Positions 1 through 42,804 of a DNA stretch of 64,000 nt are shown piece by piece. The stretch lies in the NCBI RefSeq assembly GCF_055900595.2, contig NZ_CM148325.1; one strand, written 5' to 3'. The position numbers were made by a program, and so were the translations under genes. The notes under the pieces were generated by a model. It was given only the letters and a program-made list of their open reading frames with translations, did not search any database and was not told the origin of the DNA. How positions within the stretch are numbered: the stretch's first letter is position 1; each line of letters starts with the position of its first letter.

Positions 1-349
1 TCATAATCGCCATCACCAGCAGGACCCAGAAAATCAGCAGGCCGATGGTTTTCAGCAGAATCAATAAACCGGCAATCCAAATGATTGGCAGGAAGGTCAC
101 CACTTTAAACAGCACGATGGCTTTAATGAAACTGAGAATATAGGCAACCAGCAGCGAGGCGCTATCAATGGGGCCCATTGCCGGAATAACGCGGCGCAGT
201 GGCCCGATAATCGGCTGCGTTACCTTCACTACAAACTGTGAGAAGGGGTTGTAAAAATCACAATGAGCCCACTGCATCCAGATGCGTAATAACAGCACCA
301 TGGTATACAGCTCAATGACCGTTGAAAGCAGGAAAGTCAACGTATTCAT
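1..349 (-). CDS. yggT: YggT-family integral membrane protein, N-terminal part only; gene runs off the window start
   Basis: Minus-strand ATG at 347-349; translation MNTLTFLLSTVIELYTMVLLLRIWMQWAHCDFYNP... stays open to position 2. Absent from ORF track because there is no in-window stop. Confidence 0.85.
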   Translation of the reverse strand, partial: MNTLTFLLSTVIELYTMVLLLRIWMQWAHCDFYNPFSQFVVKVTQPIIGPLRRVIPAMGPIDSASLLVAYILSFIKAIVLFKVVTFLPIIWIAGLLILLKTIGLLIFWVLLVMAIM

Positions 350-366
350 GGCGTTCCTTTAATTCC

Positions 367-1071
367 TTATTTTTTAGAGTAATCACGCGCACCAAAAATT
401 GCAGTGCCGATACGAACCATCGTGCTACCTGCCGCAATGGCGGCTTCCATATCGTCCGACATTCCCAGAGAGAGCGTGTCGATATGCGGGTAGCGCGTTT
501 TCAGTCCGGCAAATGCTACAGCCATTTGGCGTGCAACTTCAAACTGCCTTACATATTCTGACTCAGGCGCAGGGATTGCCATCAGCCCGCGCAGACGTAA
601 ACGCGGTAGTTCAGCGACCGCAGCTGCCAGCTCGTCCAGTTCAGCCAGTTGAATCCCGGACTTACTGTTTTCATCACTAATGTTAATTTGAATCAGTACG
701 TTAAGAGGGGGAAGTTCTGCCGGGCGCTGGTCGTTCAGACGGGTAGCGATGCGCAAACGGTCGATGGTATGACACCAGTCGAAATGCTCTGCCACCAGGC
801 GGCTTTTATTAGACTGCAACGGGCCAATAAAATGCCATTCTAATCCTGTTACGCCCAGTTCCTGAAAGTGGCGAATTTTATCTACCCCTTCCTGAACGTA
901 GTTTTCACCAAATTGACGCTGCCCGGCATCAATGGCTTCTGCGATGGCGCTCGCAGGTTTTGTTTTACTGACTGCAAGCAGCGTAATTTCTTCTGGAGAA
1001 CGGCCGCAACGCGTTGCAGCCGCTGAGATTTTGTCCCGGACCTGTGCCAGGTTATGCGCAATATCGTTCAT
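367..1071 (-). CDS. yggS: PLP-homeostasis protein YggS (234 aa)
   Basis: ORF-track protein matches my recollection of YggS full length; sits between yggT and yggR as in E. coli. Confidence 0.93.
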   Translation of the reverse strand: MNDIAHNLAQVRDKISAAATRCGRSPEEITLLAVSKTKPASAIAEAIDAGQRQFGENYVQEGVDKIRHFQELGVTGLEWHFIGPLQSNKSRLVAEHFDWCHTIDRLRIATRLNDQRPAELPPLNVLIQINISDENSKSGIQLAELDELAAAVAELPRLRLRGLMAIPAPESEYVRQFEVARQMAVAFAGLKTRYPHIDTLSLGMSDDMEAAIAAGSTMVRIGTAIFGARDYSKK

Positions 1072-1088
1072 TTTCCGAGGATCTTAGT

Positions 1089-2069
1089 ATGAATATGGAA
1101 GAAATTGTGGCCCTTAGTGTAAAGCATAACGTCTCGGATCTACACCTGTGCAGCGCCTGGCCCGCACGATGGCGCATTCGCGGGCGAATGGAAGCTGCGC
1201 CGTTTGATGCGCTGGACGTCGAAGAGCTACTGCGGGAGTGGCTGGATGACGATCAGCGGACAATATTGCTGGAGAATGGTCAGTTGGATTTTGCTGTGTC
1301 GCTGGCGGAAAACCAGCGGTTGCGTGGCAGTGCGTTCGCGCAACGGCAAGGTATTTCTCTGGCATTACGGTTGTTACCTTCGCACTGTCCACAGCTCGAA
1401 CAGCTTGGTGCGCCACCGGTATTGCCGGAATTACTCAAGAGCGAGAATGGCCTGATTCTGGTGACGGGGGCGACGGGGAGCGGCAAATCTACCACGCTGG
1501 CGGCGATGGTTGGCTATCTCAATCAACATGCCGATGCGCATATTCTGACGCTGGAAGATCCTGTGGAATATCTCTATACCAGTCAGCGATGTTTGATCCA
1601 ACAGCGGGAGATTGGTTTGCACTGTATGACTTTCGCATCGGGATTGCGGGCTGCATTGCGGGAAGATCCTGATGTGATTTTGCTCGGAGAGCTGCGTGAT
1701 AGCGAGACAATCCGTCTGGCGCTGACGGCGGCAGAAACCGGGCATCTGGTGCTGGCGACATTACACACGCGCGGCGCAGCGCAGGCAGTTGAGCGACTGG
1801 TGGATTCGTTTCCGGCGCAGGAAAAAGATCCCGTGCGTAATCAACTGGCAGGTAGTTTACGGGCGGTGTTGTCACAAAAGCTGGAAGTGGATAAACAGGA
1901 AGGACGCGTGGCGCTGTTTGAATTACTGATTAACACACCCGCGGTGGGGAATTTGATTCGTGAAGGGAAAACCCACCAGTTACCGCATGTTATTCAAACC
2001 GGGCAGCAGGTGGGGATGATAACGTTTCAGCAGAGTTATCAGCAGCGGGTGAAAGAAGGGCGCTTGTGA
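1089..2069 (+). CDS. yggR: PilT-like type IV pilus retraction ATPase YggR (326 aa)
   Basis: Track ORF trimmed by 25 codons to ATG at 1089 (MNMEEIVALSV...); Walker A GATGSGKST visible. Confidence 0.9.
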   Translation: MNMEEIVALSVKHNVSDLHLCSAWPARWRIRGRMEAAPFDALDVEELLREWLDDDQRTILLENGQLDFAVSLAENQRLRGSAFAQRQGISLALRLLPSHCPQLEQLGAPPVLPELLKSENGLILVTGATGSGKSTTLAAMVGYLNQHADAHILTLEDPVEYLYTSQRCLIQQREIGLHCMTFASGLRAALREDPDVILLGELRDSETIRLALTAAETGHLVLATLHTRGAAQAVERLVDSFPAQEKDPVRNQLAGSLRAVLSQKLEVDKQEGRVALFELLINTPAVGNLIREGKTHQLPHVIQTGQQVGMITFQQSYQQRVKEGRL

Positions 2070-2097
2070 CGTTGCTGTGTCTGATACGAATTGTAAA

Positions 2098-2200
2098 TAT
2101 GCCCGATGCGCAAGCTTATCGGGCCTACAAGGGAAGCGTAACTTTGAATTCGCACTCACTGTAGGTTGGATAAGGCGTTTACGCCGCATCCAACATGAAA
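2098..2200. repeat. REP/BIME palindromic units
   Basis: gcccgatgcgcaagcttatcgggcctaca and inverted tgtaggttggataaggcgtttacgccgcatcc match the REP consensus family; convergent gene ends on both sides. Confidence 0.7.
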
Positions 2201-2242
2201 CAACGAGCACATTGTCAGAAATCTGTGCGCTAGTAAATCGCC

Positions 2243-2659
2243 TTAATATCCCTGCTCGAAATAGCTTTCGAGAATAATAACCGCAGAGGCAGAGTCGACT
2301 TTGCCTTTGTTGAGCGCCCGATAGCCGCCCTGTTCAAACAGACCGGAACGTGCCTCCACGGTGCTAAGACGCTCGTCATGGAGCTTTACTTCAACACCGA
2401 AACGACCATGAATACGGTTGGCAAATTTACGCGCTCTGGCGGTTAACGGCTGTTCGGTGCCGTCCATATTCAGCGGCAAACCGACGATGATTTCGTCCGG
2501 CTGCCACTCTTTCAGTAAACGCTCGATAATGTTCCAGTCCGGCGTACCGTCCTGCGCTTTAATTGCAGGCAAAGGGCGAGCGGTGCCGGTAATGCGTTGG
2601 CCGACCGCTACGCCAATGCTTTTGGTGCCGAAGTCGAAGGCGAGTAAGGTTCCACTCAT
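2243..2659 (-). CDS. ruvX: Holliday-junction-resolvase-like RNase RuvX/YqgF (138 aa)
   Basis: Track ORF trimmed to [20 protein letters not shown]...; start overlaps yqgE stop by 1 nt. Confidence 0.9.
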
Positions 2660-3222
2660 CAGGCGTGTCCTGCCACACCAGGCATGGTGAGAATATCCAC
2701 ACCAATCAGTTTTGCCGCCTCGCGCCAGCGGTCGGCAATCGGCGTTTTGAACAGAATATTCAGATCTGCCGGGGCCGTTAGCCACGCGTTATCGAGAATT
2801 TCTTGTTCCAGTTGACCTTTCTCCCAGGAGGCATAACCCAGAGCCACCAATACGTCAGACGGTTGTTTATCGGTGCCGAGCGTTTCCAGCACATCGCGGG
2901 AAGTGGTCATCACTGTGTTGTCTGAAATGCGAATGCTGGAAGCAAAATTGGAAGGCGGAGTATGCAAAATAAACCCGCGATCTTCAGCCAGCGGACCGCC
3001 GAGCATAACCGGTTTATCCAGACGGATTGATTCATCACGCGGCTCCGGCGTGATCTTCAGCTTTTCCAGAATCCCTTCAATTTTGAGATTTTCCAGCGGC
3101 TTGTTGACGATGATCCCCATTGCACCATTGGTATTATGTTCGCAAATGTAGACCACGGAACGACGGAAAATCGGATCCTGGAGAGCAGGCATGGCAATAA
3201 GAAAGTGATGCTGTAAATTCAT
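2659..3222 (-). CDS. yqgE: YqgE/AlgH family protein (187 aa)
   Basis: Track ORF trimmed to [17 protein letters not shown]...; cat at 3220-3222. Confidence 0.88.
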
Positions 3223-3330
3223 TGTCAGAGGTTCTGTTTCCTGGTTCAAAAAAGCAACAGCGCCCAGTATGCGTGGAAAGAAGGGCGCTGTCACTCAGAG
3301 TCTCAACGAGATCCTTCTCGCTAAGGTGGG

Positions 3331-4281
3331 TTACTGCTGCTGTAAACGTGCTTCGATGGCATCCATTAACATTCCGGTAATCGACACCGGAAACTCTGCT
3401 TCAATCTCACGAATACAGGTTGGGCTGGTGACGTTAATTTCAGTCAGACGGTCGCCGATGATATCCAGACCAACAAAAATCAGCCCTTTTTCTTTCAGCG
3501 TCGGCCCAATCTGACGGGCGATTTTCCAGTCACTTTCCGTCAGCGGACGAGGTTCACCGCGACCACCGGCAGCCAGATTGCCACGGGTTTCGCCCCCCTG
3601 CGGAATACGCGCCAGGCAATACGGCACCGGCTCGCCATCCACTACCAGCACGCGTTTGTCGCCATCTTTAATGGCTGGCAGGTAATTTTGCGCCATGCAG
3701 TAGCGAGTGCCATGCTCAGTCAGGGTTTCGGCAATCACGCCGAGGTTTGGATCACCTTCTTTCACGCGGAAAATCGACGCGCCGCCCATACCGTCCAGCG
3801 GCTTAAGAATGATGTCGCTGTGTTTTTCCCAGAAAGCTTTTAGCTGCGCTTTATTGCGTGTGACCAGCGTTTCTGGTGTTAAGTCAGAGAACCAGGCAGT
3901 GAACAGTTTTTCGTTACAATCGCGCAGGCTCTGCGGCTTGTTAACGATCAGCGTCCCTTTATCTTCGGCACGTTCCAGAATATAGGTCGAGTAGATAAAC
4001 TCGGTATCAAACGGCGGGTCTTTACGCATCAGGATCACATCGAGATCGGCCAGCGGCAGATCCTGCTCACCCGTGAACTCGTACCATTTATCGTAGTTCT
4101 GTTCGACGCTCAAAGTACGGGTACGAGCGCGAGCCTCACCATTGATCAAATAGAGATCGGCCATCTCCATATAGTGAAGTTCGTAACCACGACGCTGTGC
4201 TTCCAGCAACATAGCGAAACTGGAATCTTTCTTGATGTTGATGTTTGCGATGGGGTCCATCACGATGCCGAGCTTGATCAT
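3331..4281 (-). CDS. gshB: glutathione synthetase (316 aa)
   Basis: MIKLGIVMDPIANINIKKDSSFAMLLEAQRRGYELHYMEM... matches GshB full length; ATP-grasp fold. Confidence 0.95.
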   Translation of the reverse strand: MIKLGIVMDPIANINIKKDSSFAMLLEAQRRGYELHYMEMADLYLINGEARARTRTLSVEQNYDKWYEFTGEQDLPLADLDVILMRKDPPFDTEFIYSTYILERAEDKGTLIVNKPQSLRDCNEKLFTAWFSDLTPETLVTRNKAQLKAFWEKHSDIILKPLDGMGGASIFRVKEGDPNLGVIAETLTEHGTRYCMAQNYLPAIKDGDKRVLVVDGEPVPYCLARIPQGGETRGNLAAGGRGEPRPLTESDWKIARQIGPTLKEKGLIFVGLDIIGDRLTEINVTSPTCIREIEAEFPVSITGMLMDAIEARLQQQ

Positions 4282-4293
4282 TATTCTTCTCCG

Positions 4294-5025
4294 TTAGCCC
4301 AAATCGCCAAAACGCACTTGTAGCGCGGTAATGGCGGTGAGCGCAGTTGTCTCAGTACGCAAAACGCGAGGTCCCAACAGGATATCAGTAAATTGATAGC
4401 GGGCAGTCATGGCAATTTCATCTGCCGATAAACCGCCTTCCGGGCCAATCAGCAGGCGGACGCGTTCGACCGGTAACGGCAACGTATTGATGCTGTTACT
4501 GGCGCGCGGGTGAAGATTCAGTTTCAGTCCTTCATCCTGCTCTGCACACCAGGCTTCCAGATCCATCGCTGGACGGATTTCCGGCACCCGGTTACGGCCA
4601 CACTGCTCACAGGCAGCAATTGCAATCTTCTGCCACTGCTGGAGCTTCTTGTTCAGACGTTCACTATCCAGTTTAACGCCGCAGCGCTCAGAAAAAAGTG
4701 GCGTAATGAGGCTTACACCGAGTTCGATCGATTTCTGGATAGTAAATTCCATTTTTTCACCACGCGACATCACCTGACCGAGGTGAATATGCAGCGGAGA
4801 TTCGCGATCGTCGATCTGGCCTTCCAGCACCTTCACTTCCACGCTTTTTTTGCTGGCGCTGGTAATTTCGGCGTCAAAGACCTGGTTGCTGCCGTCAAAC
4901 AATTGCAGCGCCTGTCCCGGCCCCATACGCAGTACGCGCCCGATATGGTTGGCGGCATCTTCGCAAAGCGCGATGTGAGAATGGCTGGTCAGTGGTTCAG
5001 GATGATAAATGCGGGGGATACGCAT
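4294..5025 (-). CDS. rsmE: 16S rRNA m3U1498 methyltransferase RsmE (243 aa)
   Basis: Track ORF trimmed 9 codons to [12 protein letters not shown]... Confidence 0.9.
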
Positions 5026-5045
5026 AGTTAAAAATCCGCGTCGTC

Positions 5046-5069
5046 TCCCCACGCGGTTGTACGCGTGGG
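5046..5069 (-). other. GC-rich hairpin between endA and rsmE
   Basis: ccccacgcg-gttgta-cgcgtgggg perfect 9-bp inverted repeat; a short T-run follows on the minus strand after about 10 nt. Confidence 0.3.
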
Positions 5070-5104
5070 GTAGGGGTTAACAAAAAGAATCCCGCTAGTG
5101 TAGG

Positions 5105-5812
5105 TTAGCTCTTTCGCGCCTGGCAAGCGCGTTGCACATACGGGTTATGATTGCCCTGCACCTTCGCGATGCGTTCATCACGTTCGCACTCCCAGTCGGT
5201 AACTGGATACATCTTGTCCCATGCGTTGAACAGCTGCGTTTGCTGACGAGAGAGTGTCAGGTTGTATTGGTCACGCATATAGAAGTAGGTGCGCGCAATG
5301 GCACCGCGTGCACGCGCTGGTGGTTCGGCAACTTTTTCTTTGAAATCGACCTTCATGGCGCATTGACCGTACTGGCCTTCACCGCCATTCCACTGGCTGT
5401 ACATAAAGTTGCCGCGATCGCCATTCACCTCACCGACTGACGGCTGCAGGTTATGCATATCGCTTTCCATCTTGCGATAGACCGGATCTTTGGCGCAATT
5501 TTTACGTCCACCGTCCTGCCAGCACTGGCGCTGGTGACCGAATTGCCAGGCAGGAACGACGTGTTCCCACTCTACGCGGCTGGCACGGTTTTCATTTTTT
5601 CGCACCTGATAGCCGCACGATTGCAGATCAACAACGCCTTTTTTGCCCTGCCAGTTAATTTTACATCCGCAATAAAACGTACCGGGCGCGTCAGCGTGGA
5701 CTTTTACCGCCGCGGCTTTCGCTTGAGAAAAACTATTGATACCTTCGGCCAATGCCGGGCCGGAAAATGCTGTGCTCAGTACCACCGCAGCAATAGACAA
5801 ATAACGGTACAT
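5105..5812 (-). CDS. endA: periplasmic endonuclease I (about 235 aa)
   Basis: [22 protein letters not shown] signal peptide then conserved EndA body; start taken at the second Met of the track ORF, so start is uncertain by one codon. Confidence 0.9.
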
Positions 5813-5906
5813 CACTTACTCCGTGTTAAAACGAGCCAGCAACGTAGCGAAAGTTGTTTTGGTATGCAATCAGCCAGATCAGGAAAGTTCCTGATAGTTC
5901 AGGTGG

Positions 5907-6404
5907 TTATTTCGCAACCAGCTGTTCGCCGCAGTGAACACAGCGATAGACGGCTTCGCCACGAACTACGCGATTATGACGGCGTACGGTAAGCTGATGC
6001 TCCTGGCACTTGCAGCGGTAGGGGAAGGTGTTGCGGCGCACGGATTGCAGTTCGAACTGATGCGTACGACGGGCGGGAACGCCCAGCACGCTTTCCATCA
6101 TCCACTTCCACTCTTTGCCATGTGGCGCTACGCGGCCGAAATGTTTCCATACCAGCAAATGTGCCAGTTCGTGCGGCACCACTTCTTCAATAAAGGCTTC
6201 ACTGTTTTCCAACAGCAAAACGGGATTGAGACGAATTTCATAGCTTTCCAGCCAGGCTGTTCCGGCAGAGGTTCCGCGCTGGGTGTAAGAGAGTTTTGGC
6301 TCCGGGTAGTTACGCCCTAGCTTCAGGTTGGCCTGGGCGAGTTTTTCCCGCAGGCGACGCATAACGGCCTGTTGGATGGCGATAGGGAGACGGGATGTTT
6401 TCAT
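5907..6404 (-). CDS. sprT: SprT zinc-metallopeptidase-like protein (165 aa)
   Basis: Track ORF trimmed to [14 protein letters not shown]...; HELAH motif visible. Confidence 0.88.
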
Positions 6405-6480
6405 AGCGGCAGAGGATAGAGCGAAGAAAAGATGACTGCAAGAGGTGGCTTCCTCCATGATGGGAGGAAGCCTGAGGAGA

Positions 6481-7875
6481 TTAATCGTGAGCGCCGATTT
6501 CGCGCAGTTTACGACCTTTCATCAGATTACGTTCAATATGTTCCAGCGAAACGTGTTTGGTTTCCGGTACCAGCCACAATGTCAGCAGGATAAACAGTAC
6601 GTTCAGAGCAGCATACACCCAGAAGGTGTTGGCGTTACCCAGCGTGTTGAGCATGGTCAGGAACGTTGCGCCAACGATCATGTTGGCAATCCAGTTGGTG
6701 GCAGTGGAGCAGGTGATGCCAAAATCGCGGCCTTTCAGCGGCTGAATTTCGGAGCACAGTACCCAAATCAGCGGACCGGCACTCATGGCAAAACCGACAA
6801 TAAACATCAGCAGCATGGCGATGGCGAAATACTGCGCCGACGGAGAGTGGATACCGATATGCATCATTGTACCGAGTACGCCCATACCAGCAGCCATCAC
6901 CAGGAAGCCCAGCGTTAGCGTTGGTTTACGTCCCCAGCGGTCAACAAGGCCGATTGCGATAAAGGTGGCAAGTACGTTGGTCAGGCCGACAATCACTGTC
7001 CCCCACATTTGCTCGGTGGTGTTGGTATAACCCGCCAGTTCGAAGATTTTCGGCGCGTAATACATGATGACGTTCATCCCGGTGAATTGCTGCATTACCT
7101 GCAATAGTACGCCAAGGAACACCGCGCGGCGGAAGTTGCTATTCTCTTTAAACAGCGCCCAGCCACTCTGTTTAACCTGCAAACTTTCACGGATTTCATC
7201 CAGTTCGCGTTTCGCTTCCGCGCTGGTGTCACGCAGGCGTAGCAGCACGCGTTCGGCATCAACAAAACGGCGTTTGGCGGCAAACCAACGTGGGCTGTCT
7301 GGCAGGAAGAAGACACCAATCAGCAGCAAAATTGCCGGGATGATAATCACACCCAGCATCCAGCGCCATGCACCGGTGTAGCTGAAGGCGGTATCAGAAA
7401 GATAAGCGCCGAGGATCCCGATAGTGATCATCAACTGATACATCGAGATCATACTGCCGCGAATTTTTTCCGGCGCAATTTCTGACAGGTACAGTGGTGC
7501 GGTATAAGAGGCCACACCCACCGCCAGCCCCAGCAGAACGCGGGAAAGAATCAGTACTTCAACGTTTGGCGCAGCCGCAGAGAACAGTGAACCGGCAACA
7601 AACAGGATTGCGCCGATCATCAGGCTCTTTTTGCGCCCGAGTTTAAAGGAGAGCCAGCCGCTGCCCACCGCACCGACTGCCGCACCGAACATCATGGAGC
7701 TTACGACCCATTCTTGCGTGTGCGAAGTAATCTGGAATTCATCTGCAATAAACGGCAGTGCGCCAGCAATTACACCGATATCCAGGCCAAAGAGTAATCC
7801 CGCCAGAGCGGCAAGGAAGCAGACGAAAAACGTCATTGCCTTGTTTGACCGCCCCTGTTTTTTAGCGTCAGGCAT
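6481..7875 (-). CDS. galP: galactose:H+ symporter, MFS sugar porter (464 aa)
   Basis: Track ORF trimmed to [24 protein letters not shown]...; 12-TM MFS layout. Confidence 0.95.
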
Positions 7876-8250
7876 GATGCCCTCCAATATGGTTATTTTT
7901 TATTGTGAATTAAGATAGGTGAGTACGACGTAAAAAGATGTGAAGCAAATCACATCAGTGTAATCGCTTACACTAACATTTATCTTAGTTATGATTTAAG
8001 TGCATGAAAATAATTGAGTTATATCATCATAGATTAAAGGTTGTTATCTGCAATTAAGACTTTACTGAAAAGAAATGTAACAACTGTGAAAGCTGAATAA
8101 TAATATGAAAATATTACAAATATTTGGCTGGTGTGGTTGGTGTAATCGATTTCAGTAGTGATGATAATTTGCGGTAAAACGTGTTGAGGAAGAATGATGT
8201 TATTGTGCGGGCGGTTTTTTGCCGGATGCGGCGTGAACGCCTGTCCACTG
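7876..8250 (-). promoter_or_regulatory. AT-rich galP upstream control region
   Basis: Long AT-rich spacer upstream of galP; the known galP promoter region of E. coli lies here. Individual operator sites not mapped. Confidence 0.4.
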
Positions 8251-8257
8251 CGGTGAG

Positions 8258-8290
8258 GTAAAAGAAAAAGGCCAGCGCGAGGCTGGCCTT
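8258..8290 (-). terminator. metK rho-independent terminator
   Basis: Minus strand reads aaaggccagcctcgcgctggccttt followed by tttcttttt, immediately 3' of the metK stop. Confidence 0.65.
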
Positions 8291-8310
8291 TGAAAGCAGG
8301 TGAAGAAAGA

Positions 8311-9465
8311 TTACTTCAGACCGGCAGCATCACGCAGCAGCTGCGCTTTGTCGGTTTTTTCCCACGGGAAATGTTCACGACCAAAGTGACCGTATGCTGC
8401 GGTTTCTTTGTAGATCGGGTGCAGCAGATCCAGCATCTGAATCAGACCGTATGGGCGCAGGTCGAAGAATTCACGTACCAGCAGAGTCAGTTGTTCAGAA
8501 GGCACTTTCTCAGTACCGAAAGTTTCTACCATGATGGAAGTCGGTTCAGCCACGCCGATTGCGTAGGAAACCTGAATTTCACAACGATCGGCCAGGCCAG
8601 CAGCAACAATGTTTTTCGCGACATAACGTGCTGCGTAGGCTGCGGAACGGTCCACTTTTGATGGATCTTTACCGGAGAACGCACCGCCACCATGACGCGC
8701 CATGCCGCCGTAGGTATCAACGATGATTTTACGACCAGTCAGACCGCAGTCACCCATCGGGCCACCGATAACGAAACGACCGGTCGGGTTGATGAAGAAT
8801 TTGGTGGCAGAAGTCAGCCATTCAGCGGGCAGAATCGGCTTGATGATCTCTTCCATTACCGCTTCTTGCAGCGATTTCTGGTCGATCTCTTCAGAGTGCT
8901 GAGTGGAAAGCACGACAGCATCAATGCCAACGATTTTGCCGTCGTCATACTGGAAAGTCACCTGGCTTTTCGCGTCCGGGCGCAGCCACGGCAGAGTGCC
9001 GTTTTTACGCACTTCAGCCTGACGCTGTACCAGACGGTGTGCATAAGTGATAGGTGCTGGCATCAGCACGTCGGTTTCATTAGTTGCGTAGCCAAACATC
9101 AGCCCCTGGTCGCCCGCGCCCTGTTCCAGCGGATCGGCACGGTCAACGCCCTGGTTGATGTCAGGAGACTGTTTACCGATGGCGCTCAGAACCGCACAGG
9201 AGTTAGCGTCAAAGCCCATGTCGGAATGCACATAGCCAATTTCGCGAACGGTATTACGGGTGATCTCTTCGATGTCTACCCAGGCGCTGGTGGTGATTTC
9301 GCCGCCAACTAAAACCATGCCGGTTTTTACGTAGGTTTCGCAAGCAACGCGTGCTTTCGGATCCTGTTCGAGGATCGCGTCTAAAACGGCATCAGAGATT
9401 TGGTCAGCAATTTTGTCAGGATGCCCTTCAGAGACGGACTCGGACGTAAAAAGGTGTTTTGCCAT
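8311..9465 (-). CDS. metK: S-adenosylmethionine synthetase (384 aa)
   Basis: Track ORF trimmed 4 codons to [18 protein letters not shown]... Confidence 0.96.
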
Positions 9466-9505
9466 ATTTAATATCACCTAAAGAGAATTTGGTTAGCTCA
9501 AACTG

Positions 9506-9772
9506 TTGTGTGGATTTTCTGTGGTAGCGGATCCTACCACGACTCTGCAGGTTAAAAACACTGGCAGTCTGAGTGTTAATCGGTATGGATGGATTAACAT
9601 CTGGATGGCTATTTTAGGTCAGTTCTTCACCCAATTTCCACTTTTTTTTGAATCGTGTCTCATTCTGTTAAAAACGTGGCTGGAAATTTTTCCTGACAAT
9701 GCTGGCATTCTGCGTATTTATCTTTTGCAATTTTCTGCCATTGTGGGGTATAAAACGCGGCGCGCGGCTTAA
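9506..9772 (+). CDS. yqgD: small ORF at the position of K-12 yqgD; coding status doubtful
   Basis: Track ORF in the metK upstream region; position and strand match the doubtful K-12 gene. No motifs. Confidence 0.25.
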
Positions 9773-9984
9773 ATAAAAAGCACACGACGTTTCTTTCGTG
9801 TTGCCACTTCCAGCCGGGTTGAAAACAGAGTTTTGGCTTGTGGGTTCGTCTTAACAGGCGGCCGTGGAGGTGATACGAAATAATGAACCGTTGTCTGCTG
9901 CTTAACCTGTCTCACCGTTCTGGTGAAGATTCGTTCCCCGCACTCTGCATCTCTGCTTTGCATACCTGCCGATGTTATACCCAT
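9769..9984 (-). CDS. yqgC: small ORF at the position of K-12 yqgC (71 aa); coding status doubtful
   Basis: 71-aa track ORF, same length, position and strand as K-12 yqgC as I recall it. Confidence 0.3.
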
Positions 9985-10119
9985 CTCGGCGCTTCTCAGG
10001 ATTCAAGAGCTGGTTACAGCTACTGAGGACTGAACAAGGGCGCTCTTGTAAAAACAAGAGTTTTCTCGTGGTTTCGCCGAACTGTCACACTTACGTTCGG
10101 TTATGTGCTTAATAATGTT

Positions 10120-10251
10120 ATGAAAAAGAAACCGGTTGCGCAGTTGGAGCGTCAGCATTCACTGCTGGAAAATCCATGTGCTTATGGGTTGTTATCGCAG
10201 TTCCAGGCTGCGATAGTCGTTAACTGTTTTACACTTAATAAAATAATTTGA
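10120..10251 (+). CDS. yqgB: small acid-stress protein YqgB (43 aa)
   Basis: ATG at 10120; [43 protein letters not shown], immediately upstream of speA. Too short for the ORF track. Confidence 0.65.
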
Positions 10252-10259
10252 GGTTCGCT

Positions 10260-12236
10260 ATGTCTGACGACATGTCTATGGGTTTGCCTTCGTCAGCGGG
10301 CGAACACGGTGTACTACGCTCCATGCAGGAGGTTGCAATGAGCTCCCAGGAAGCCAGCAAGATGCTGCGTACTTACAATATTGCCTGGTGGGGCAATAAC
10401 TACTATGACGTTAACGAGCTGGGCCACATCAGCGTGTGCCCGGACCCGGACGTCCCGGAAGCTCGCGTCGATCTCGCGCAGTTAGTGAAAACTCGCGAAG
10501 CACAGGGTCAGCGTCTGCCTGCACTGTTCTGTTTCCCACAGATCCTGCAGCACCGTTTGCGTTCCATTAACGCCGCGTTCAAACGAGCGCGGGAATCCTA
10601 CGGCTATAACGGCGATTACTTCCTCGTTTATCCGATCAAAGTTAACCAGCACCGCCGCGTGATTGAGTCCCTGATTCATTCGGGCGAACCGCTGGGCCTG
10701 GAAGCCGGTTCCAAAGCCGAGTTGATGGCGGTGCTGGCACATGCTGGCATGACCCGTAGCGTCATCGTCTGCAACGGTTATAAGGACCGCGAATATATCC
10801 GCCTGGCATTAATTGGCGAGAAGATGGGCCACAAGGTCTATCTGGTCATTGAGAAGATGTCAGAAATTGCCATTGTGCTGGATGAAGCAGAACGTCTGAA
10901 TGTCGTTCCTCGTCTGGGCGTGCGTGCACGTCTGGCTTCGCAGGGCTCGGGTAAATGGCAGTCCTCCGGCGGGGAAAAATCGAAGTTTGGCCTGGCGGCG
11001 ACTCAAGTACTGCAACTGGTTGAAACGCTGCGTGAAGCCGGGCGTCTCGACAGCCTGCAACTGCTGCACTTCCACCTCGGTTCGCAGATGGCGAATATTC
11101 GCGATATCGCGACAGGCGTTCGTGAATCCGCGCGTTTCTATGTGGAACTGCACAAGCTGGGCGTCAATATTCAGTGCTTCGACGTCGGCGGCGGTCTGGG
11201 CGTGGACTATGAAGGCACCCGTTCTCAGTCTGACTGCTCCGTAAACTACGGCCTCAATGAATACGCCAACAACATCATCTGGGCGATTGGTGATGCGTGT
11301 GAAGAAAATGGTCTGCCACATCCGACGGTAATCACCGAATCGGGTCGTGCGGTGACTGCGCATCACACCGTGCTGGTGTCGAATATCATCGGCGTGGAAC
11401 GTAACGAATACACGGTGCCGACCGCGCCTGCAGAAGATGCACCGCGCGCCCTGCAAAGCATGTGGGAAACCTGGCAGGAAATGCACGAACCGGGAACTCG
11501 CCGTTCTCTGCGTGAATGGTTACACGACAGCCAGATGGATCTGCACGACATTCATATCGGCTACTCTTCCGGCACCTTTAGCCTGCAAGAACGCGCATGG
11601 GCTGAGCAGCTTTATTTGAGCATGTGCCATGAAGTGCAAAAGCAGCTGGATCCGCAAAACCGTGCTCATCGTCCGATTATCGACGAGCTGCAGGAACGTA
11701 TGGCGGACAAAATGTACGTCAACTTCTCGCTGTTCCAGTCGATGCCGGATGCGTGGGGGATCGACCAGTTGTTCCCGGTTCTGCCGCTGGAAGGGCTGGA
11801 TCAAGTGCCGGAACGCCGCGCTGTGCTGCTGGATATTACCTGTGACTCAGACGGTGCTATCGACCACTATATTGATGGTGACGGTATTGCCACGACAATG
11901 CCTATGCCGGAGTACGATCCGGAGAATCCGCCGATGCTCGGTTTCTTTATGGTCGGCGCATATCAGGAGATCCTCGGCAACATGCACAACCTGTTCGGTG
12001 ATACCGAAGCGGTTGACGTGTTCGTCTTCCCTGATGGTAGCGTAGAGGTAGAACTGTCTGACGAAGGCGATACCGTGGCGGACATGCTGCAATATGTGCA
12101 GCTCGATCCGAAAACGCTGTTAACTCAGTTCCGCGATCAGGTGAAGAAAACCGATCTTGATGCTGAACTGCAACAACAGTTCCTGGAAGAGTTCGAGGCA
12201 GGTTTGTACGGTTATACCTATCTTGAAGATGAATAA
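10260..12236 (+). CDS. speA: biosynthetic arginine decarboxylase (658 aa)
   Basis: Track ORF (TTG-extended) trimmed to ATG at 10260, [20 protein letters not shown]... Confidence 0.96.
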
Positions 12237-12257
12237 TTAAGATTATTCTGCTGGCGG

Positions 12258-12300
12258 GGCGATTTATTTACGTAAATCGGCCCGCTTTCTTTTTATATAT
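12258..12300 (+). terminator. probable speA terminator
   Basis: gcggggcgattta...taaatcggcccgc imperfect hairpin followed by tttctttttat. Confidence 0.5.
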
Positions 12301-12318
12301 TCTTAAAAATAATTTAGC

Positions 12319-12327
12319 TGCTTTTCT
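12319..12327. repeat. IS1 target-site duplication, left copy (tgcttttct)
   Basis: Identical 9-mer abuts both IS1 ends. Confidence 0.9.
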
Positions 12328-12382
12328 GGTGATGCTGCCAACTTACTGATTTAGTGTATGATGGTGTTTTTGAGGTGCTCCA

Positions 12383-12658
12383 GTGGCTTCTGTTTCTATC
12401 AGCTGTCCCTCCTGTTCAGCTACTGACGGGGTGGTGCGTAACGGCAAAAGCACCGCCGGACATCAGCGCTATCTCTGCTCTCACTGCCGTAAAACATGGC
12501 AACTGCAGTTCACTTACACCGCTTCTCAACCCGGTACGCACCAGAAAATCATTGATATGGCCATGAATGGCGTTGGATGCCGGGCAACCGCCCGCATTAT
12601 GGGCGTTGGCCTCAACACGATTTTCCGCCATTTAAAAAACTCAGGCCGCAGTCGGTAA
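12383..12658 (+). CDS. insA: IS1 InsA (91 aa)
   Basis: [40 protein letters not shown]... zinc-finger N-terminus of IS1 InsA. Confidence 0.92.
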
Positions 12659-13080
12659 CCTCGCGCATACAGCCGGGCAGTGACGTCATCGTCTGCGCGG
12701 AAATGGACGAACAGTGGGGATACGTCGGGGCTAAATCGCGCCAGCGCTGGCTGTTTTACGCGTATGACAGGCTCCGGAAGACGGTTGTTGCGCACGTATT
12801 CGGTGAACGCACTATGGCGACGCTGGGGCGTCTTATGAGCCTGCTGTCACCCTTTGACGTGGTGATATGGATGACGGATGGCTGGCCGCTGTATGAATCC
12901 CGCCTGAAGGGAAAGCTGCACGTAATCAGCAAGCGATATACGCAGCGAATTGAGCGGCATAACCTGAATCTGAGGCAGCACCTGGCACGGCTGGGACGGA
13001 AGTCGCTGTCGTTCTCAAAATCGGTGGAGCTGCATGACAAAGTCATCGGGCATTATCTGAACATAAAACACTATCAATAA
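12577..13080 (+). CDS. insB: IS1 InsB reading frame (joined to InsA by -1 frameshift to give the InsAB' transposase)
   Basis: Track ORF with the IS1 InsB body (...[33 protein letters not shown]...); the 5' boundary of the track ORF is not a real start. Confidence 0.85.
12631..12639 (+). other. IS1 A6C-type -1 frameshift window (ttaaaaaac)
   Basis: ttaaaaaactc lies at the insA 3' end inside the insA/insB overlap. Confidence 0.6.
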
Positions 13081-13095
13081 GTTGGAGTCATTACC

Positions 13096-13104
13096 TGCTT
13101 TTCT
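13096..13104. repeat. IS1 target-site duplication, right copy (tgcttttct)
   Basis: Identical to 12319-12327. Confidence 0.9.
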
Positions 13105-13158
13105 TATTAAATAATCTCCCTACAATCGCTGCATTAATTAAATGCAGAGGGAACGGTT

Positions 13159-13890
13159 ATGAAAAAATGGAAAGTACGTAGCGCGTTGGTGGCATTAATC
13201 GTGCTGCTGGCTGGTTGTTCCAGTAATGCGCAGTATAATAGCAGTGCATCAGGCAATGTCGGCACCGCCTGGGGTGGGGATGTGCACTCAACGGTTCAGG
13301 GCGTATCTGCTGAACGAGCCTGGCGCGATCCGGCAGAGATGATCGTTATTAGTTATTCGACTAATGTTCCTTCCGGCTACGACCGCGTTTATAGCATTCG
13401 TATTAACGAACTGGAATATGCTATTCGCGATGGTAATTTTAATTCTCTACCTATTACGCGGGTTTATGATTCATCCAATAATGAACCACGCTATATTGTC
13501 CATGCCAGAGTCGGAATGAATTATCAATTATATGTCCGTAATTACAGTCGTAACACCAACTACGAGATCGTTGCTACGGTTGATGGCCTGGATGTGCTGA
13601 ACGGCAAGCAAGGTTCGCTGAATAACAACGGTTATATTGTGAATGCCGGAGATTCGTTAGCGATTAAAGGATTCCGCAAAGATAAACATACCGAAGCGGC
13701 TTTTCAGTTCGCCAACGTTGCTGATTCCTACGCAGCCAATTCGGCGCAAGGCGATGTGCGTAATACCGGTGTAATCGGCTTTGCCGCCTTTGAATTACAA
13801 GGCCCGGCGAAAAACGCGCTGCCGCCGTGCTCTGGACAAGCCTTTCCGGCAGATAACAATGGCTATGCGCCGCCACCGTGTCGGAAATAG
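13159..13890 (+). CDS. predicted lipoprotein, 243 aa, function unknown; not part of the K-12 speA-speB arrangement
   Basis: ATG at 13159 with upstream agagggaa RBS; N-terminus MKKWKVRSALVALIVLLAGCSSN has a signal peptide plus lipobox LAGC; Asn/Tyr/Ser-rich body; two Cys near the C-terminus. Confidence 0.7.
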   Translation: MKKWKVRSALVALIVLLAGCSSNAQYNSSASGNVGTAWGGDVHSTVQGVSAERAWRDPAEMIVISYSTNVPSGYDRVYSIRINELEYAIRDGNFNSLPITRVYDSSNNEPRYIVHARVGMNYQLYVRNYSRNTNYEIVATVDGLDVLNGKQGSLNNNGYIVNAGDSLAIKGFRKDKHTEAAFQFANVADSYAANSAQGDVRNTGVIGFAAFELQGPAKNALPPCSGQAFPADNNGYAPPPCRK

Positions 13891-13950
13891 CAACCTCGCT
13901 TGATGCCTCGCCCATTTAAGGCGATAATTAGCACAAACTTGTGTTTCACA

Positions 13951-13997
13951 AATCCAACCCTTCCTCGTCGGGCCTAACGACGCGGAAGGGTTTTTTT
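13951..13997 (+). terminator. strong hairpin plus T7 run about 30 bp upstream of speB
   Basis: cccttcctcgtcgggcctaacgacgcggaaggg followed by ttttttt. Confidence 0.55.
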
Positions 13998-14025
13998 ATA
14001 TCGACTTTGTAATAGGAGTCCATCC

Positions 14026-14946
14026 ATGAGCACCTTAGGTCATCAATACGATAACTCACTGGTTTCCAACGCCTTTGGTTTTTTACGCCTGCCGATGAAC
14101 TTCCAGCCATATGACAGCGATGCTGACTGGGTGATTACTGGCGTGCCGTTCGATATGGCCACTTCTGGTCGTGCGGGTGGTCGCCACGGTCCGGCAGCGA
14201 TCCGTCAGGTTTCGACGAATCTGGCCTGGGAACACAATCGCTTCCCGTGGAATTTCGACATGCGTGAGCGCCTGAACGTCGTGGACTGCGGCGATCTGGT
14301 ATATGCCTTCGGAGATGCCCGTGAGATGAGCGAGAAGCTGCAGGCGCACGCCGAGAAGCTGCTGGCTGCCGGTAAGCGTATGCTCTCCTTCGGTGGTGAC
14401 CACTTTGTTACGCTGCCGCTGCTGCGCGCTCATGCGAAGCATTTCGGCAAAATGGCGTTGGTACACTTTGATGCCCACACCGATACCTACGCTAACGGTT
14501 GTGAATTTGACCACGGCACCATGTTCTATACCGCGCCGAAAGAAGGTCTGATCGACCCGAATCATTCTGTGCAGATTGGTATTCGTACCGAGTTTGATAA
14601 AGACAACGGCTTTACCGTGCTGGACGCCTGCCAGGTGAACGATCGCAGCGTGGATGACATTATCGCCCAGGTGAAACAGATTGTGGGTGATATGCCGGTT
14701 TACCTGACCTTTGATATCGACTGCCTGGATCCTGCTTTTGCACCAGGCACCGGTACGCCGGTAATTGGCGGCCTGACCTCCGATCGCGCCATTAAACTGG
14801 TACGCGGCTTGAAAGATCTCAACATCGTTGGGATGGACGTAGTGGAGGTGGCTCCGGCATACGATCAGTCGGAAATCACCGCTCTGGCTGCGGCGACGCT
14901 GGCGCTGGAGATGCTGTATATCCAGGCGGCGAAAAAGGGCGAGTAA
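14026..14946 (+). CDS. speB: agmatinase (306 aa)
   Basis: [43 protein letters not shown]... full-length match to SpeB; aggagt RBS. Confidence 0.96.
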
Positions 14947-14979
14947 GCGCCAGATAAGAGGCGCGCGGGTGATGTGCCA

Positions 14980-15135
<156 letters not shown>

Positions 15136-15149
15136 GGCACTACCTGGCT

Positions 15150-15908
15150 TTACTTAACTCCATCCGCGCTCATACGATCGCGAATATGCTGGGCGCGTTC
15201 GGCGGATGCAGGATGGTCGTCAAACATTGAGCTTTGGCGGCCTTCTTCCAGTTTCGCCAGTTTTTCAAAGCTGGTGGCAAGACCTGCCGGGCTGATACCG
15301 CGTTGGCGCAGCAAATCGTAGGAGTAATCATCGGCCTCTGATTCCTGACGTTGGGTAAATTGCGAATTGACTAGCTTTTCGCCCAGGTCTCCCAGTTGTG
15401 ATTGTGACAAACTGCCGACAATTCCGCCTGCAGAGGCCGCCGCAACGCGAATTGCGTTTGTACCAAGTGCTACCTGCATTCCTTTCTTCACATGGCCTAA
15501 TGCCACGTGCCCCATTTCGTGACCGAGCACCGCTTCGACTTCGTTATCCGTCATCATATCCATCAGCCCGCTATAGACGCGGATACAGCCGTTAGCCATT
15601 GCAAAGGCGTTCACATCCTTCGCCATATACACTTTGTAATTCACCGGCTGACCGTTGATGTTATCGCCTAACGCGCGAGAAATTGTCGTCAGACGTCTAG
15701 CATATTCGCTATTGGCTGGCGCAATCGTCGCTTTGCTGTCCATCTCCTGGCATGCCTGATCGCTCAGTTTTTTCACCTGCGCATCACTCAAACTGTAAGC
15801 CTGAAAAGCTTCCGCTCCTGATGAGAGCAGTCCACTGGAGTCCATATTCTGGCAACCGGTCAGCACCGTAGCCACGCTCATTGCTACCAATAAGGCGCGA
15901 ATTTTCAT
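15150..15908 (-). CDS. loiP: M48 metalloprotease LoiP/YggG (252 aa)
   Basis: Track ORF trimmed 73 codons to MKIRALLVAMSVATVLTGC (lipoprotein signal); HEMGH zinc motif visible. Confidence 0.9.
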   Translation of the reverse strand: MKIRALLVAMSVATVLTGCQNMDSSGLLSSGAEAFQAYSLSDAQVKKLSDQACQEMDSKATIAPANSEYARRLTTISRALGDNINGQPVNYKVYMAKDVNAFAMANGCIRVYSGLMDMMTDNEVEAVLGHEMGHVALGHVKKGMQVALGTNAIRVAAASAGGIVGSLSQSQLGDLGEKLVNSQFTQRQESEADDYSYDLLRQRGISPAGLATSFEKLAKLEEGRQSSMFDDHPASAERAQHIRDRMSADGVK

Positions 15909-16185
15909 GTTTTCTCTTCCGCACAAGGTCAGGATTATTCTAAAAATGCGCCGTTTGCAGGTGAATCGACGCTCAGTCTCAGTATAAGGAAAAGCGCAGC
16001 GGACGGGCGAGTGGATTGCGCAACATGCGAGCATGATCCAGAGATTTCTGAAGCGGCAAAAGGATGTTCCATGTACATGACGAGCGGCTTGCGGTAAATT
16101 GTTGGCAAATTTTCCGGCGTAGCCCAAAACGCGCTGTCGTCAAGTCGTTAAGGGCGTGCCCTTCATCATCCGATCTGGAGTCAAA

Positions 16186-18177
16186 ATGTCCTCACGTAAA
16201 GAGCTTGCCAATGCTATTCGTGCGCTGAGCATGGACGCAGTACAGAAAGCCAAATCCGGTCACCCGGGTGCCCCTATGGGTATGGCTGACATTGCCGAAG
16301 TCCTGTGGCGTGATTTCCTGAAACACAACCCGCAGAATCCGTCCTGGGCTGACCGTGACCGCTTCGTGCTGTCCAACGGCCACGGCTCCATGCTGATCTA
16401 CAGCCTGCTGCACCTCACCGGTTACGATCTGCCGATGGAAGAACTGAAAAACTTCCGTCAGCTGCACTCTAAAACTCCGGGTCACCCGGAAGTGGGTTAC
16501 ACCGCAGGTGTAGAAACCACCACCGGTCCGCTGGGTCAGGGTATTGCCAACGCAGTCGGTATGGCGATTGCAGAAAAAACGCTGGCGGCGCAGTTTAACC
16601 GTCCGGGCCACGACATCGTCGACCACTACACCTACGCCTTCATGGGCGACGGCTGCATGATGGAAGGCATCTCCCACGAAGTTTGCTCTCTGGCGGGTAC
16701 GCTGAAGCTGGGTAAACTGATTGCGTTCTACGATGACAACGGTATTTCTATCGATGGTCACGTTGAAGGCTGGTTTACCGACGACACCGCAATGCGTTTC
16801 GAAGCTTACGGCTGGCACGTTATTCGCGATATCGACGGTCATGACGCGGCATCCATCAAACGCGCAGTAGAAGAAGCGCGCGCAGTGACTGACAAACCGT
16901 CCCTGCTGATGTGCAAAACCATCATCGGTTTCGGTTCCCCGAACAAAGCCGGTACCCACGACTCCCACGGTGCGCCGCTGGGCGACGCTGAAATTGCCCT
17001 GACCCGCGAACAGCTGGGCTGGAAATACGCGCCGTTCGAAATCCCGTCTGAAATCTATGCTCAGTGGGATGCGAAAGAAGCAGGCCAGGCGAAAGAATTC
17101 GCATGGAACGAGAAATTCGCTGCTTACGCGAAAGCTTATCCGCAGGAAGCTGCTGAATTTACCCGCCGTATGAAAGGCGAAATGCCGTCTGACTTCGATG
17201 CCAAAGCGAAAGAATTCATCGCTAAACTGCAGGCTAATCCGGCGAAAATCGCCAGCCGTAAAGCGTCTCAGAATGCGATTGAAGCGTTCGGCCCGCTGTT
17301 GCCGGAATTCCTCGGCGGCTCTGCTGACCTGGCACCGTCTAACCTGACCCTGTGGTCTGGTTCTAAAGCAATCAACGAAGATGCTGCGGGTAATTACATC
17401 CACTACGGTGTTCGCGAGTTCGGTATGACCGCGATTGCTAACGGTATCTCCCTGCACGGTGGCTTCCTGCCGTACACCTCCACCTTCCTGATGTTCGTGG
17501 AATACGCACGTAACGCCGTACGTATGGCTGCGCTGATGAAACAGCGTCAGGTGATGGTTTACACCCACGACTCCATCGGTCTGGGCGAAGATGGCCCGAC
17601 TCACCAGCCGGTAGAGCAGGTCGCTTCTCTGCGCGTGACCCCGAACATGTCCACATGGCGTCCGTGTGACCAGGTTGAATCCGCGGTCGCGTGGAAATAC
17701 GGCGTTGAGCGTCAGGACGGCCCGACTGCGCTTATCCTCTCCCGTCAGAACCTGGCGCAGCAGGAACGTACTGAAGAGCAGCTGGCAAACATCGCGCGCG
17801 GTGGTTATGTGCTGAAAGACTGTGCCGGTCAGCCGGAACTGATCTTCATCGCTACCGGTTCTGAAGTTGAACTGGCGGTTGCTGCCTACGAAAAACTGAC
17901 TGCTGAAGGCGTGAAAGCGCGCGTGGTTTCCATGCCGTCTACCGACGCATTCGACAAGCAGGATGCGGCTTACCGTGAGTCTGTACTGCCGAAAGCGGTT
18001 ACTGCACGCGTTGCGGTGGAAGCTGGCATTGCTGACTACTGGTACAAGTATGTTGGCCTGAACGGTGCTATCGTCGGCATGACCACCTTCGGTGAATCTG
18101 CTCCGGCAGAGCTGCTGTTTGAAGAGTTCGGCTTCACCGTTGACAACGTTGTTGCGAAAGCAAAAGAACTGCTGTAA
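16186..18177 (+). CDS. tktA: transketolase 1 (663 aa)
   Basis: Track ORF trimmed 10 codons to [35 protein letters not shown]... Confidence 0.96.
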
Positions 18178-19977: not shown

Positions 19978-21366
19978 ATGGAAAACAAGTCTGCTCGTGC
20001 AAAGGTCCAGGCTTTTGGGGGCTTTTTGACGGCAATGGTCATCCCCAATATTGGTGCTTTTATTGCCTGGGGTTTTATTACTGCATTATTTATTCCTACT
20101 GGTTGGCTGCCTAACGAACATTTCGCCAAAATTGTCGGCCCGATGATTACCTATTTATTGCCCGTAATGATTGGTTCTACCGGTGGCCATTTAGTCGGCG
20201 GTAAACGCGGCGCAGTCATGGGCGGAATAGGGACAATTGGTGTAATCGTCGGCGCAGAAATCCCGATGTTCCTTGGTTCAATGATCATGGGACCGTTAGG
20301 TGGGCTGGTCATAAAATATGTCGATAAGGCACTGGAAAAACGCATACCTGCTGGTTTTGAGATGGTTATCAATAACTTCTCATTAGGTATCACCGGGATG
20401 CTCCTTTGTCTGCTGGGTTTTGAAGTAATCGGCCCGGCGGTGTTAATTGCCAATACTTTCGTCAAAGAGTGTATTGAGGCGCTGGTACATGCGGGCTATC
20501 TGCCTTTGCTGTCAGTCATCAATGAACCGGCGAAAGTGCTTTTCCTCAATAACGCGATAGATCAGGGCGTCTATTACCCGTTGGGGATGCAACAGGCTTC
20601 AGTTAACGGTAAATCCATCTTCTTTATGGTGGCGTCCAACCCTGGGCCTGGCTTAGGACTGCTGTTGGCGTTTACTTTGTTTGGTAAAGGGATGAGTAAA
20701 CGTTCTGCGCCCGGGGCGATGATTATTCACTTCCTCGGTGGGATCCACGAACTGTATTTCCCGTATGTGCTGATGAAGCCGCTGACCATTATTGCCATGA
20801 TTGCCGGCGGTATGTCTGGCACCTGGATGTTTAACTTACTGGACGGTGGTCTGGTGGCTGGTCCAAGTCCGGGGTCTATCTTTGCTTACCTTGCACTGAC
20901 GCCGAAAGGCTCGTTCCTGGCGACAATTGCCGGTGTTACGGTAGGTACCCTGGTGTCCTTTGCTATCACTTCCGTAATACTGAAGATGGAAAAAACGGTG
21001 GAAACGGAGAGCGAAGATGAGTTTGTGCAGTCCGCCAATGCGGTTAAGGCGATGAAACAAGAAGGTACATTCTCGTTAAGCCGGGTTAAGCGTATCGCCT
21101 TTGTTTGCGATGCGGGAATGGGCTCCAGCGCGATGGGCGCAACCACCTTCCGTAAGCGCCTGGAAAAAGCGGGGCTGGCAATAGAAGTAAAACATTACGC
21201 GATAGAAAACGTGCCTGCAGATGTGGATATCGTCGTTACTCACGCTAGTCTGGAAGGGCGCGTGAAACGTGTGACGGATAAACCGCTGATATTGATTAAT
21301 AACTATATTGGCGATCCCAAACTCGACACTTTATTTAATCAATTAACCGCTGAACATAAAAACTGA
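19978..21366 (+). CDS. cmtA: PTS mannitol-family EIICB component, cryptic (462 aa)
   Basis: Full-length match to CmtA; multi-TM EIIC followed by EIIB. Confidence 0.9.
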   Translation: MENKSARAKVQAFGGFLTAMVIPNIGAFIAWGFITALFIPTGWLPNEHFAKIVGPMITYLLPVMIGSTGGHLVGGKRGAVMGGIGTIGVIVGAEIPMFLGSMIMGPLGGLVIKYVDKALEKRIPAGFEMVINNFSLGITGMLLCLLGFEVIGPAVLIANTFVKECIEALVHAGYLPLLSVINEPAKVLFLNNAIDQGVYYPLGMQQASVNGKSIFFMVASNPGPGLGLLLAFTLFGKGMSKRSAPGAMIIHFLGGIHELYFPYVLMKPLTIIAMIAGGMSGTWMFNLLDGGLVAGPSPGSIFAYLALTPKGSFLATIAGVTVGTLVSFAITSVILKMEKTVETESEDEFVQSANAVKAMKQEGTFSLSRVKRIAFVCDAGMGSSAMGATTFRKRLEKAGLAIEVKHYAIENVPADVDIVVTHASLEGRVKRVTDKPLILINNYIGDPKLDTLFNQLTAEHKN

Positions 21367-34036: not shown

Positions 34037-34059
34037 TTTTACTCCTTCGTTCGCAGGGA

Positions 34060-34845: not shown

Positions 34846-34855
34846 AAAAATTCCT

Positions 34856-41744: not shown

Positions 41745-41756
41745 GTGCACAGAAAA

Positions 41757-42599: not shown

Positions 42600-42740
42600 A
42601 ACGGTAAAGCCCTCACCGAAGCGAGGGCTTGAAGGAGAAGGGTTATGATGCGACTCGTCATCATACTGATTGTACTGTTACTGATAAGTTTGCCAGCTTA
42701 TTAACAGTCAGTCACAGGGGAGGAGTCATCCTCCCTTACC
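42600..42740 (-). ncRNA. sibC: SibC antisense sRNA (antitoxin of ibsC); ends approximate
   Basis: Region antisense to ibsC ending in hairpin aagccctcgcttcggtgagggctt on the minus strand; position between serA and ygfA matches K-12 sibC. Confidence 0.45.
42645..42704 (+). CDS. ibsC: type I toxin IbsC, 19-aa hydrophobic peptide
   Basis: atgatgcgactcgtcatcatactgattgtactgttactgataagtttgccagcttattaa = MMRLVIILIVLLLISLPAY*, matching the Ibs toxin family as recalled. Too short for the ORF track. Confidence 0.65.
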   Translation: MMRLVIILIVLLLISLPAY

Positions 42741-42804
42741 CTTACTCACTAAATTAGGTTAAAGAATCAACGATGTCAATCAGGGCGATGCAGGTGTGTC
42801 GCCC

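Follow-up and report, generated by a model that had tools for sequence, protein, structure and literature searches.

The 64-kb stretch of DNA analysed here, which we refer to as the window, carries an IS1 element between speA and a downstream lipoprotein gene. We are largely persuaded that the element is the product of a single recent transposition into a preferred AT-rich target, that it sits on the haplotype of the Escherichia coli strains U1 and 28Eco12, that it reached or was retained in the present genome by recombination and that its effect is modest. Under this account, an IS1B/IS1R-like element would have transposed once into the 146-bp spacer that runs from the speA terminator to the lipoprotein gene, at a stretch of 74% A+T, with a staggered 9-bp cut giving rise to the usual target duplication. 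The event would have taken place on the chromosomal haplotype now present in U1 and 28Eco12, homologous recombination, with its join inside tkt, would have brought the allele into the window genome or kept it there, and other IS1 variants would have struck the same phosphodiester independently. The insertion is a real and ordinary feature, its allele being already known and annotated in RefSeq genomes; the gene names used for the window were themselves taken from identical RefSeq loci.

The element occupies 768 bp on the plus strand (positions 12328-13095) and has the hallmarks of the IS1 family, namely a length of about 768 bp, inverted repeats, overlapping insA and insB' frames with an A6C motif, a 9-bp duplication and sequence identity to known members. 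Its left terminal inverted repeat (IRL, 12328-12350, plus strand) and right terminal inverted repeat (IRR, 13073-13095, minus strand), reading GGTGATGCTGCCAACTTACTGAT and GGTAATGACTCCAACTTATTGAT, respectively, are imperfect, with complementarity at 18 of the 23 terminal bases. Between them, insA (12383-12658, plus strand) begins at a GTG codon and encodes the 91-residue repressor of the IS1 promoter and of transposition (PMC12903888), and the insB' frame taken by itself extends over 12577-13080 (plus strand). The programmed −1 frameshift motif described for IS1, AAAAAAC (PMC12903888), lies at 12634-12640 (plus strand), and once this shift is applied the insAB' transframe transposase gene (12383-13080, plus strand) reads without interruption for 232 amino acids, annotated on identical DNA of U1 and 28Eco12 as RefSeq WP_095033700.1. 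The DDE catalytic triad and N-terminal zinc-finger/HTH region of InsAB' are presumed from the close match to the K-12 proteins, which differ by merely one or two residues. A promoter-like sequence, CTGCCA-N16-TATGAT (12335-12362, plus strand), emerged from a promoter scan at the place where PIS1 has been described as partly overlapping IRL (PMC12903888), and is putatively assigned as that promoter. An earlier note on this DNA had described an intact 768-bp IS1 with both inverted repeats, insA/insB' and the A6C window, and every coordinate proved exact; the element is a canonical IS1 that is, by appearance, transposition-competent.

On either side of the element lies the same 9-mer, TGCTTTTCT, read directly from the sequence at 12319-12327 on the left and 13096-13104 on the right (neither copy being assigned a strand). 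A search of both strands of the 64-kb window returned these two occurrences only, and at the local base composition a match of nine out of nine flanking bases would arise by chance with a probability of about 1e-5. IS1 generates target duplications of 8 or 9 bp and prefers A/T-rich and regulatory DNA (PMC12903888). The occupied allele can be recognized by its left and right junction k-mers, TTTAGCTGCTTTTCTGGTGATGCTGCC and GTCATTACCTGCTTTTCTTATTAAAT, and the empty site by TTTAGCTGCTTTTCTTATTAAAT.

To reconstruct the ancestral arrangement, IS1 and one copy of the 9-mer were removed in silico and the resulting empty site was searched in 5426 complete E. coli genomes. The uninterrupted speA-lipoprotein arrangement is present in 3543 of them. 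Strain SK1144 has precisely this empty site with a single TGCTTTTCT, matching at 1200 of 1200 bases in the search and 7200 of 7200 by direct comparison, so that both the perfect target duplication claimed by the earlier note and its prediction of a single-copy 9-mer in IS1-free relatives are borne out. The identical left junction occurs in two of the 5426 genomes, U1 (NZ_CP041359.1) and 28Eco12 (NZ_CP038505.1), each of which matches the window at all 8240 bases of positions 8208-16447, both junctions included; a search for the exact junction among GTDB species representatives gave no match. We give next to no credence to an error of assembly, or to a direct repeat arisen by chance beside a collapsed IS copy, as the origin of the arrangement. 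IS1 is certainly a multicopy sequence of the kind that can mislead assemblers, being found in 4970 of the 5426 genomes with a median of 11 places in each, but the recurrence of the same junctions in two independent complete assemblies excludes an artefact, excision of IS1 and one repeat copy yields an exact known empty site, and a 9-bp repeat by chance has the very low probability given above.

The same comparison dates the insertion. Leaving IS1 aside, the occupied U1 and the empty SK1144 chromosomes differ by merely three SNPs in about 47 kb, such that the insertion must be very young and later than a very shallow split, and the presence of both alleles on near-identical chromosomes demonstrates recent mobility, in agreement with the earlier view of a recent and unrearranged insertion. 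In 28Eco12, a second identical IS1 lies about 7 kb downstream, inside cmtB (20010-20777 of its locus, near window position 19836); it is missing from the window, U1 and SK1144, which shows IS1 activity to be ongoing in the 28Eco12 lineage. A search of the literature turned up no previous description of IS1 between speA and speB.

As to its type, the element is 100% identical to many RefSeq copies on chromosomes and plasmids that are labelled ‘IS1-like element IS1B family transposase, programmed frameshift’. The K-12 elements, both the IS1A/IS1E ‘consensus’ type and the IS1B/IS1C type, share with it the 768-bp length, inverted repeats, insA, insB', A6C motif and gene order, although it is exactly equal to neither, being 99.1% identical to K-12 IS1A (7 of 768 nucleotides differ) and 99.7% identical to K-12 IS1B/C (2 of 768). 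At the protein level, InsAB' of the window differs from that of IS1A by F81L and R130S, and from that of IS1B/C by a single residue, L217 in the window and Q in K-12. The two nucleotide differences from IS1B/C are at IS1 positions 127 and 704 (window 12454 and 13031), the latter accounting for residue 217. In K-12, IS1B/C are reported to be normally immobile (PMC12903888), whereas the window variant is a recent mover that is common on both plasmids and chromosomes; Q217, specified by position 704, is a candidate cause of their immobility.

For at least 17 kb, the allele in the window is the same as that in U1 and 28Eco12, in its IS1, its duplication and its flanks, and those two genomes have it annotated by RefSeq/PGAP. 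Compared with U1 and 28Eco12, the window shows one mismatch (position 5183) in positions 1-17198, and the SK1144 haplotype behaves likewise over the same interval. Dense SNPs then begin at 17199, within tkt (16186-18177), and from there on the window has a different and rarer background: its remaining 47 kb is 92-98% identical to U1 and 28Eco12, and the best identity to any of the 5426 complete genomes is 98-98.9%. The confinement of the match to positions 1-17198 and the sharp onset of SNPs mark a recombination boundary and place the allele within a mosaic, in which, as read from these alignments, homologous recombination has joined the haplotype bearing IS1, at least 17 kb long, to a rarer, divergent background. 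Import may have gone either way, with a divergent genome receiving the IS1 haplotype or a U1-like genome receiving a divergent segment.

An independent origin in the window genome, coinciding by chance with the U1/28Eco12 allele, is very unlikely. The site is demonstrably one that is struck repeatedly, as described below, but here the IS1, the 9-bp duplication and the flanks are identical where the other events at this site have 8-bp duplications, no base differs over 8208-16447 and one differs over 1-17198, and SNPs appear abruptly at 17199, as they do where recombination has ended. Whichever side was imported, the insertion is one event common to the window, U1 and 28Eco12, and not a separate transposition.

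Beyond the boundary, a 4.3-kb segment of the window (32711-37062) has no counterpart in U1, 28Eco12 and SK1144, which carry truncated methylmalonyl-CoA mutase and acetyl-CoA hydrolase pseudogenes opposite it. An intact scpA-scpC (sbm) operon is probably retained in the window, since scpA and scpC are annotated in other genomes that match window positions 40-64 kb. Four RNA features detected at the Rfam gathering level are all expected in this chromosomal region, namely STnc490 (41755-41878, plus strand), a Sib antitoxin RNA beside ibsC (42629-42779, minus strand), the 6S RNA ssrS (43428-43611, minus strand) and ES036 (53514-53556, minus strand).

The interval downstream of speA that holds the IS1 of the window has been hit by IS1 many times. 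In CUVET20-PYO4 and SCU-316, IS1 is inserted at the same left junction (...GCTGCTTTTCT|GGT) and in the same orientation as in the window, although the elements themselves differ: that of CUVET20-PYO4 is IS1A-like with 8 differences, that of SCU-316 is 90.6% identical, and both are flanked by the 8-bp duplication GCTTTTCT. The flanks of the three genomes also differ from one another, by 40-63 SNPs per 1.75-2.5 kb, and different IS1 variants on different flanking haplotypes indicate that this one phosphodiester was struck three times independently. A second position in the spacer, 27 bp downstream (window-equivalent 13122-13130) and directly past a candidate −10 element considered below, is occupied in MS 21-1 and 20KM2222 by an IS1 of opposite orientation with the duplication CAATCGCTG.

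Insertions within the lipoprotein gene (13159-13890, plus strand; 243 amino acids with the lipobox LLAGC, the gene next downstream of IS1) are found in both orientations in DS26-1, LY180/AQ15/SL112, GN25, S931B and E6/GPEC1040, with further examples in FDAARGOS_1259/FDAARGOS_1260, AHB18, N10/23CRST038 and EC32. Those of FDAARGOS_1259 and AHB18 were made by the IS1 sequence type of the window. Five independent insertions (DS26-1, the LY180 group, FDAARGOS_1259/1260, E6/GPEC1040 and N10/23CRST038) cluster in 67 bp of the gene, at window-equivalent 13398-13464. The copies in N10/23CRST038 and EC32 lack a target duplication and have a foreign right flank (a uacT and a sat fragment, respectively), which points to IS1-mediated inversion or another rearrangement. 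Altogether, about 13 independent IS1 events are seen in an 877-bp interval, in 20 of 3543 genomes, and these counts are lower bounds because the junction queries see IS1 only up to about 620 bp from the speA end and in complete genomes.

The uncharacterised lipoprotein was placed in no Pfam or NCBIfam family. A Pfam search gave an insignificant match to DUF7537 only, over the signal peptide, NCBIfam gave nothing near its cut-offs, and public names and clusters are the uninformative ‘hypothetical protein’ or ‘lipoprotein’. The gene is missing from about 1880 of the 5426 genomes, which are K-12-like and match the speA part of the query only, and its absence from about one-third of E. coli genomes, together with its disruption by IS1 in several others, shows it to be dispensable. 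The K-12-type absence was considered as an IS1-adjacent deletion starting from the insertion site and rejected, because the similarity of the two arrangements stops at the speA stop codon and does not extend to the IS1 site.

The repeated use of one nucleotide makes the insertion point a preferred IS1 target. Three matches in site and orientation would have a probability of about 1e-4 under a uniform target, by a crude calculation, and the A+T content of 74% in the 25 bp on either side, against 48% for the window, fits the documented preference of IS1 for A/T-rich DNA. An IS1 hot spot in pBR322 is associated with IHF binding; a site preference is common to both cases, but no match to the IHF consensus WATCARNNNNTTR, with up to one mismatch allowed, is present in the approximately 130 bp of empty-site sequence that was scanned (window-equivalent 12261-12327 and 13105-13170), and an IHF site was set aside as the cause of the preference here. 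Another parallel is the bglGFB operon, upstream of which IS1 also inserts recurrently into a small target in A/T-rich regulatory DNA (PMC12903888). That operon is silent and activated by IS1, however, whereas nothing here points to prior silencing of the lipoprotein gene or to its later activation.

Recurrence of this kind could also be the work of selection, with repeated IS1 insertions, at this nucleotide and within the lipoprotein gene, kept for silencing or rewiring that gene, for altering speB (putrescine) expression, or for both, through loss of upstream DNA, polarity or a junction promoter. Three independent insertions at one site on three haplotypes, some 13 events in 877 bp and the low probability of the triple match under a roughly uniform target all speak for it, and there are precedents for IS1 switching genes on, relieving their repression or creating fusion promoters (PMC12903888). 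We nevertheless regard it as unlikely. The alleles are rare, with the 20 of 3543 genomes covering all events and the window allele confined to two of 5426; the insertions have both orientations and many positions, as target preference and a dispensable gene predict; local A+T richness accounts for the preference by itself; and the one hybrid promoter candidate at the IRR junction, TTGGAG-N17-TATTAA (13082-13110), is weak, its score of 2.6 being far below the best scores expected by chance. It is similarly doubtful that the phosphodiester after ...GCTGCTTTTCT is a true site-specific IS1 hot spot, with convergent insertions, both there and in the neighbouring lipoprotein gene, selected in some host-associated E. 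coli lineages. Were hot-spot use and selection to be the correct reading, the lipoprotein gene would be silenced or rewired, and speB and putrescine synthesis would possibly be tuned.

A single recent transposition into a preferred target, the reading we favour, carries modest consequences for the neighbouring genes. Upstream, speA ends at 12236 and is followed by a hairpin (12253-12286) with the tract UUUCUUUUU, which together form a probable intrinsic terminator (12253-12295, plus strand) with a predicted folding energy of −22.4 kcal/mol (z −4.4; none of 200 shuffled sequences folds equally well). IS1 lies beyond this strong hairpin and U-tract, and 63 bp separate its end from the lipoprotein ATG (13159), which opens 54 bp past the right duplication copy, confirming its reported landing between the speA terminator and the start codon. 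The insertion puts 777 bp more between the lipoprotein gene and both the AT-rich DNA formerly next to it and whatever speA read-through remains, and lipoprotein expression may fall as a result.

That the native lipoprotein promoter had been displaced, as the earlier note proposed, finds little to sustain it. A consensus sigma-70 scan of the spacer returned no site above chance. The best weak candidate for a core promoter from a position-weight scan, TTTTCT-N16-TACAAT (13099-13126, plus strand), has a score reached by 75% of shuffled sequences and is thus not above chance, and all of it falls between IS1 and the gene, with its −35 element inside the retained right duplication copy, such that only AT-rich DNA further upstream has been moved. 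The DNA so displaced lies upstream of about −38 and might serve as an UP-like element. Alternatively, the lipoprotein promoter could lie upstream of the insertion point, and the gene would then be largely silenced. An inverted repeat, CTGCATT-AATTA-AATGCAG (13129-13147), sits between the candidate −10 (TACAAT) and the lipoprotein Shine-Dalgarno sequence, where it may serve as an operator or in the control of translation; in the predicted fold, an upstream CUCCC pairs with the Shine-Dalgarno region.

Transcription from within IS1 was the other route suggested. The insA and insB' frames do point toward the lipoprotein gene, and, with no intrinsic terminator found between insB' and its ATG, read-through from the element is sterically possible. 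However, PIS1 is weak and repressed by InsA, and less than 2% of transcripts yield transposase (PMC12903888).

Downstream of the lipoprotein gene lies speB (14026-14946). The speB-proximal spacer of 135 bp (13891-14025, plus strand) is homologous to the whole speA-speB spacer of K-12, the 137-bp spacer of K-12-type strains aligning with the lipoprotein-speB spacer of the window, and on account of that 137-bp gap the K-12 speAB pair ‘may not be an operon’ (PMC8674398). The window spacer contains a promoter-like TTGATG-N17-GATAAT (13900-13928, plus strand) found by scanning. Downstream of it is a hairpin (13956-13992; −26.8 kcal/mol, z −5.2), conserved in K-12-type strains, which is followed by U7 (to 13999) about 27 bp 5' of the speB start codon and could be either the terminator of the upstream gene or an attenuator in the speB leader. 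From the homology of the spacer, a speB-specific promoter probably lies within it. speB keeps its whole proximal control region, untouched by IS1.

In the gal and lac operons, IS1 insertions are classically polar, and the element is polar in both orientations. As in those cases, the present insertion lies between co-oriented genes and polarity is to be expected, but, unlike in gal and lac, terminators already part the genes here. Two hairpin/U-tract terminators and the lipoprotein gene already stand between speA and speB when the site is empty, and IS1 can remove only such read-through as survives the first of them. With the 135-bp spacer intact, the proposal that the insertion cuts speB off from speA read-through loses most of its force. 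Wherever the regulatory proposals of the earlier note are open to a check against sequence, they are weakened by it. The lipoprotein level is probably either reduced or unchanged and speB little affected, and, with a dispensable lipoprotein gene and the speB region kept, the insertion is most likely neutral or nearly so.

As textbook IS1 biology in an allele already present in RefSeq, the insertion carries little mechanistic weight, and the additions that are mildly noteworthy, both missed by the earlier note, are the triple independent insertion at one nucleotide and the mosaic that bears the allele. As a natural near-isogenic pair, the occupied U1 and the empty SK1144 lend themselves to measuring the effect on downstream transcription of an IS1 lodged between a terminator and a gene, and the IS1 junction, which goes with a haplotype at least 17 kb long, is a clean marker of lineage and recombination. 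For the IS1 family itself, insertion at the same nucleotide by three differing subtypes provides a chromosomal case in which to study target choice.
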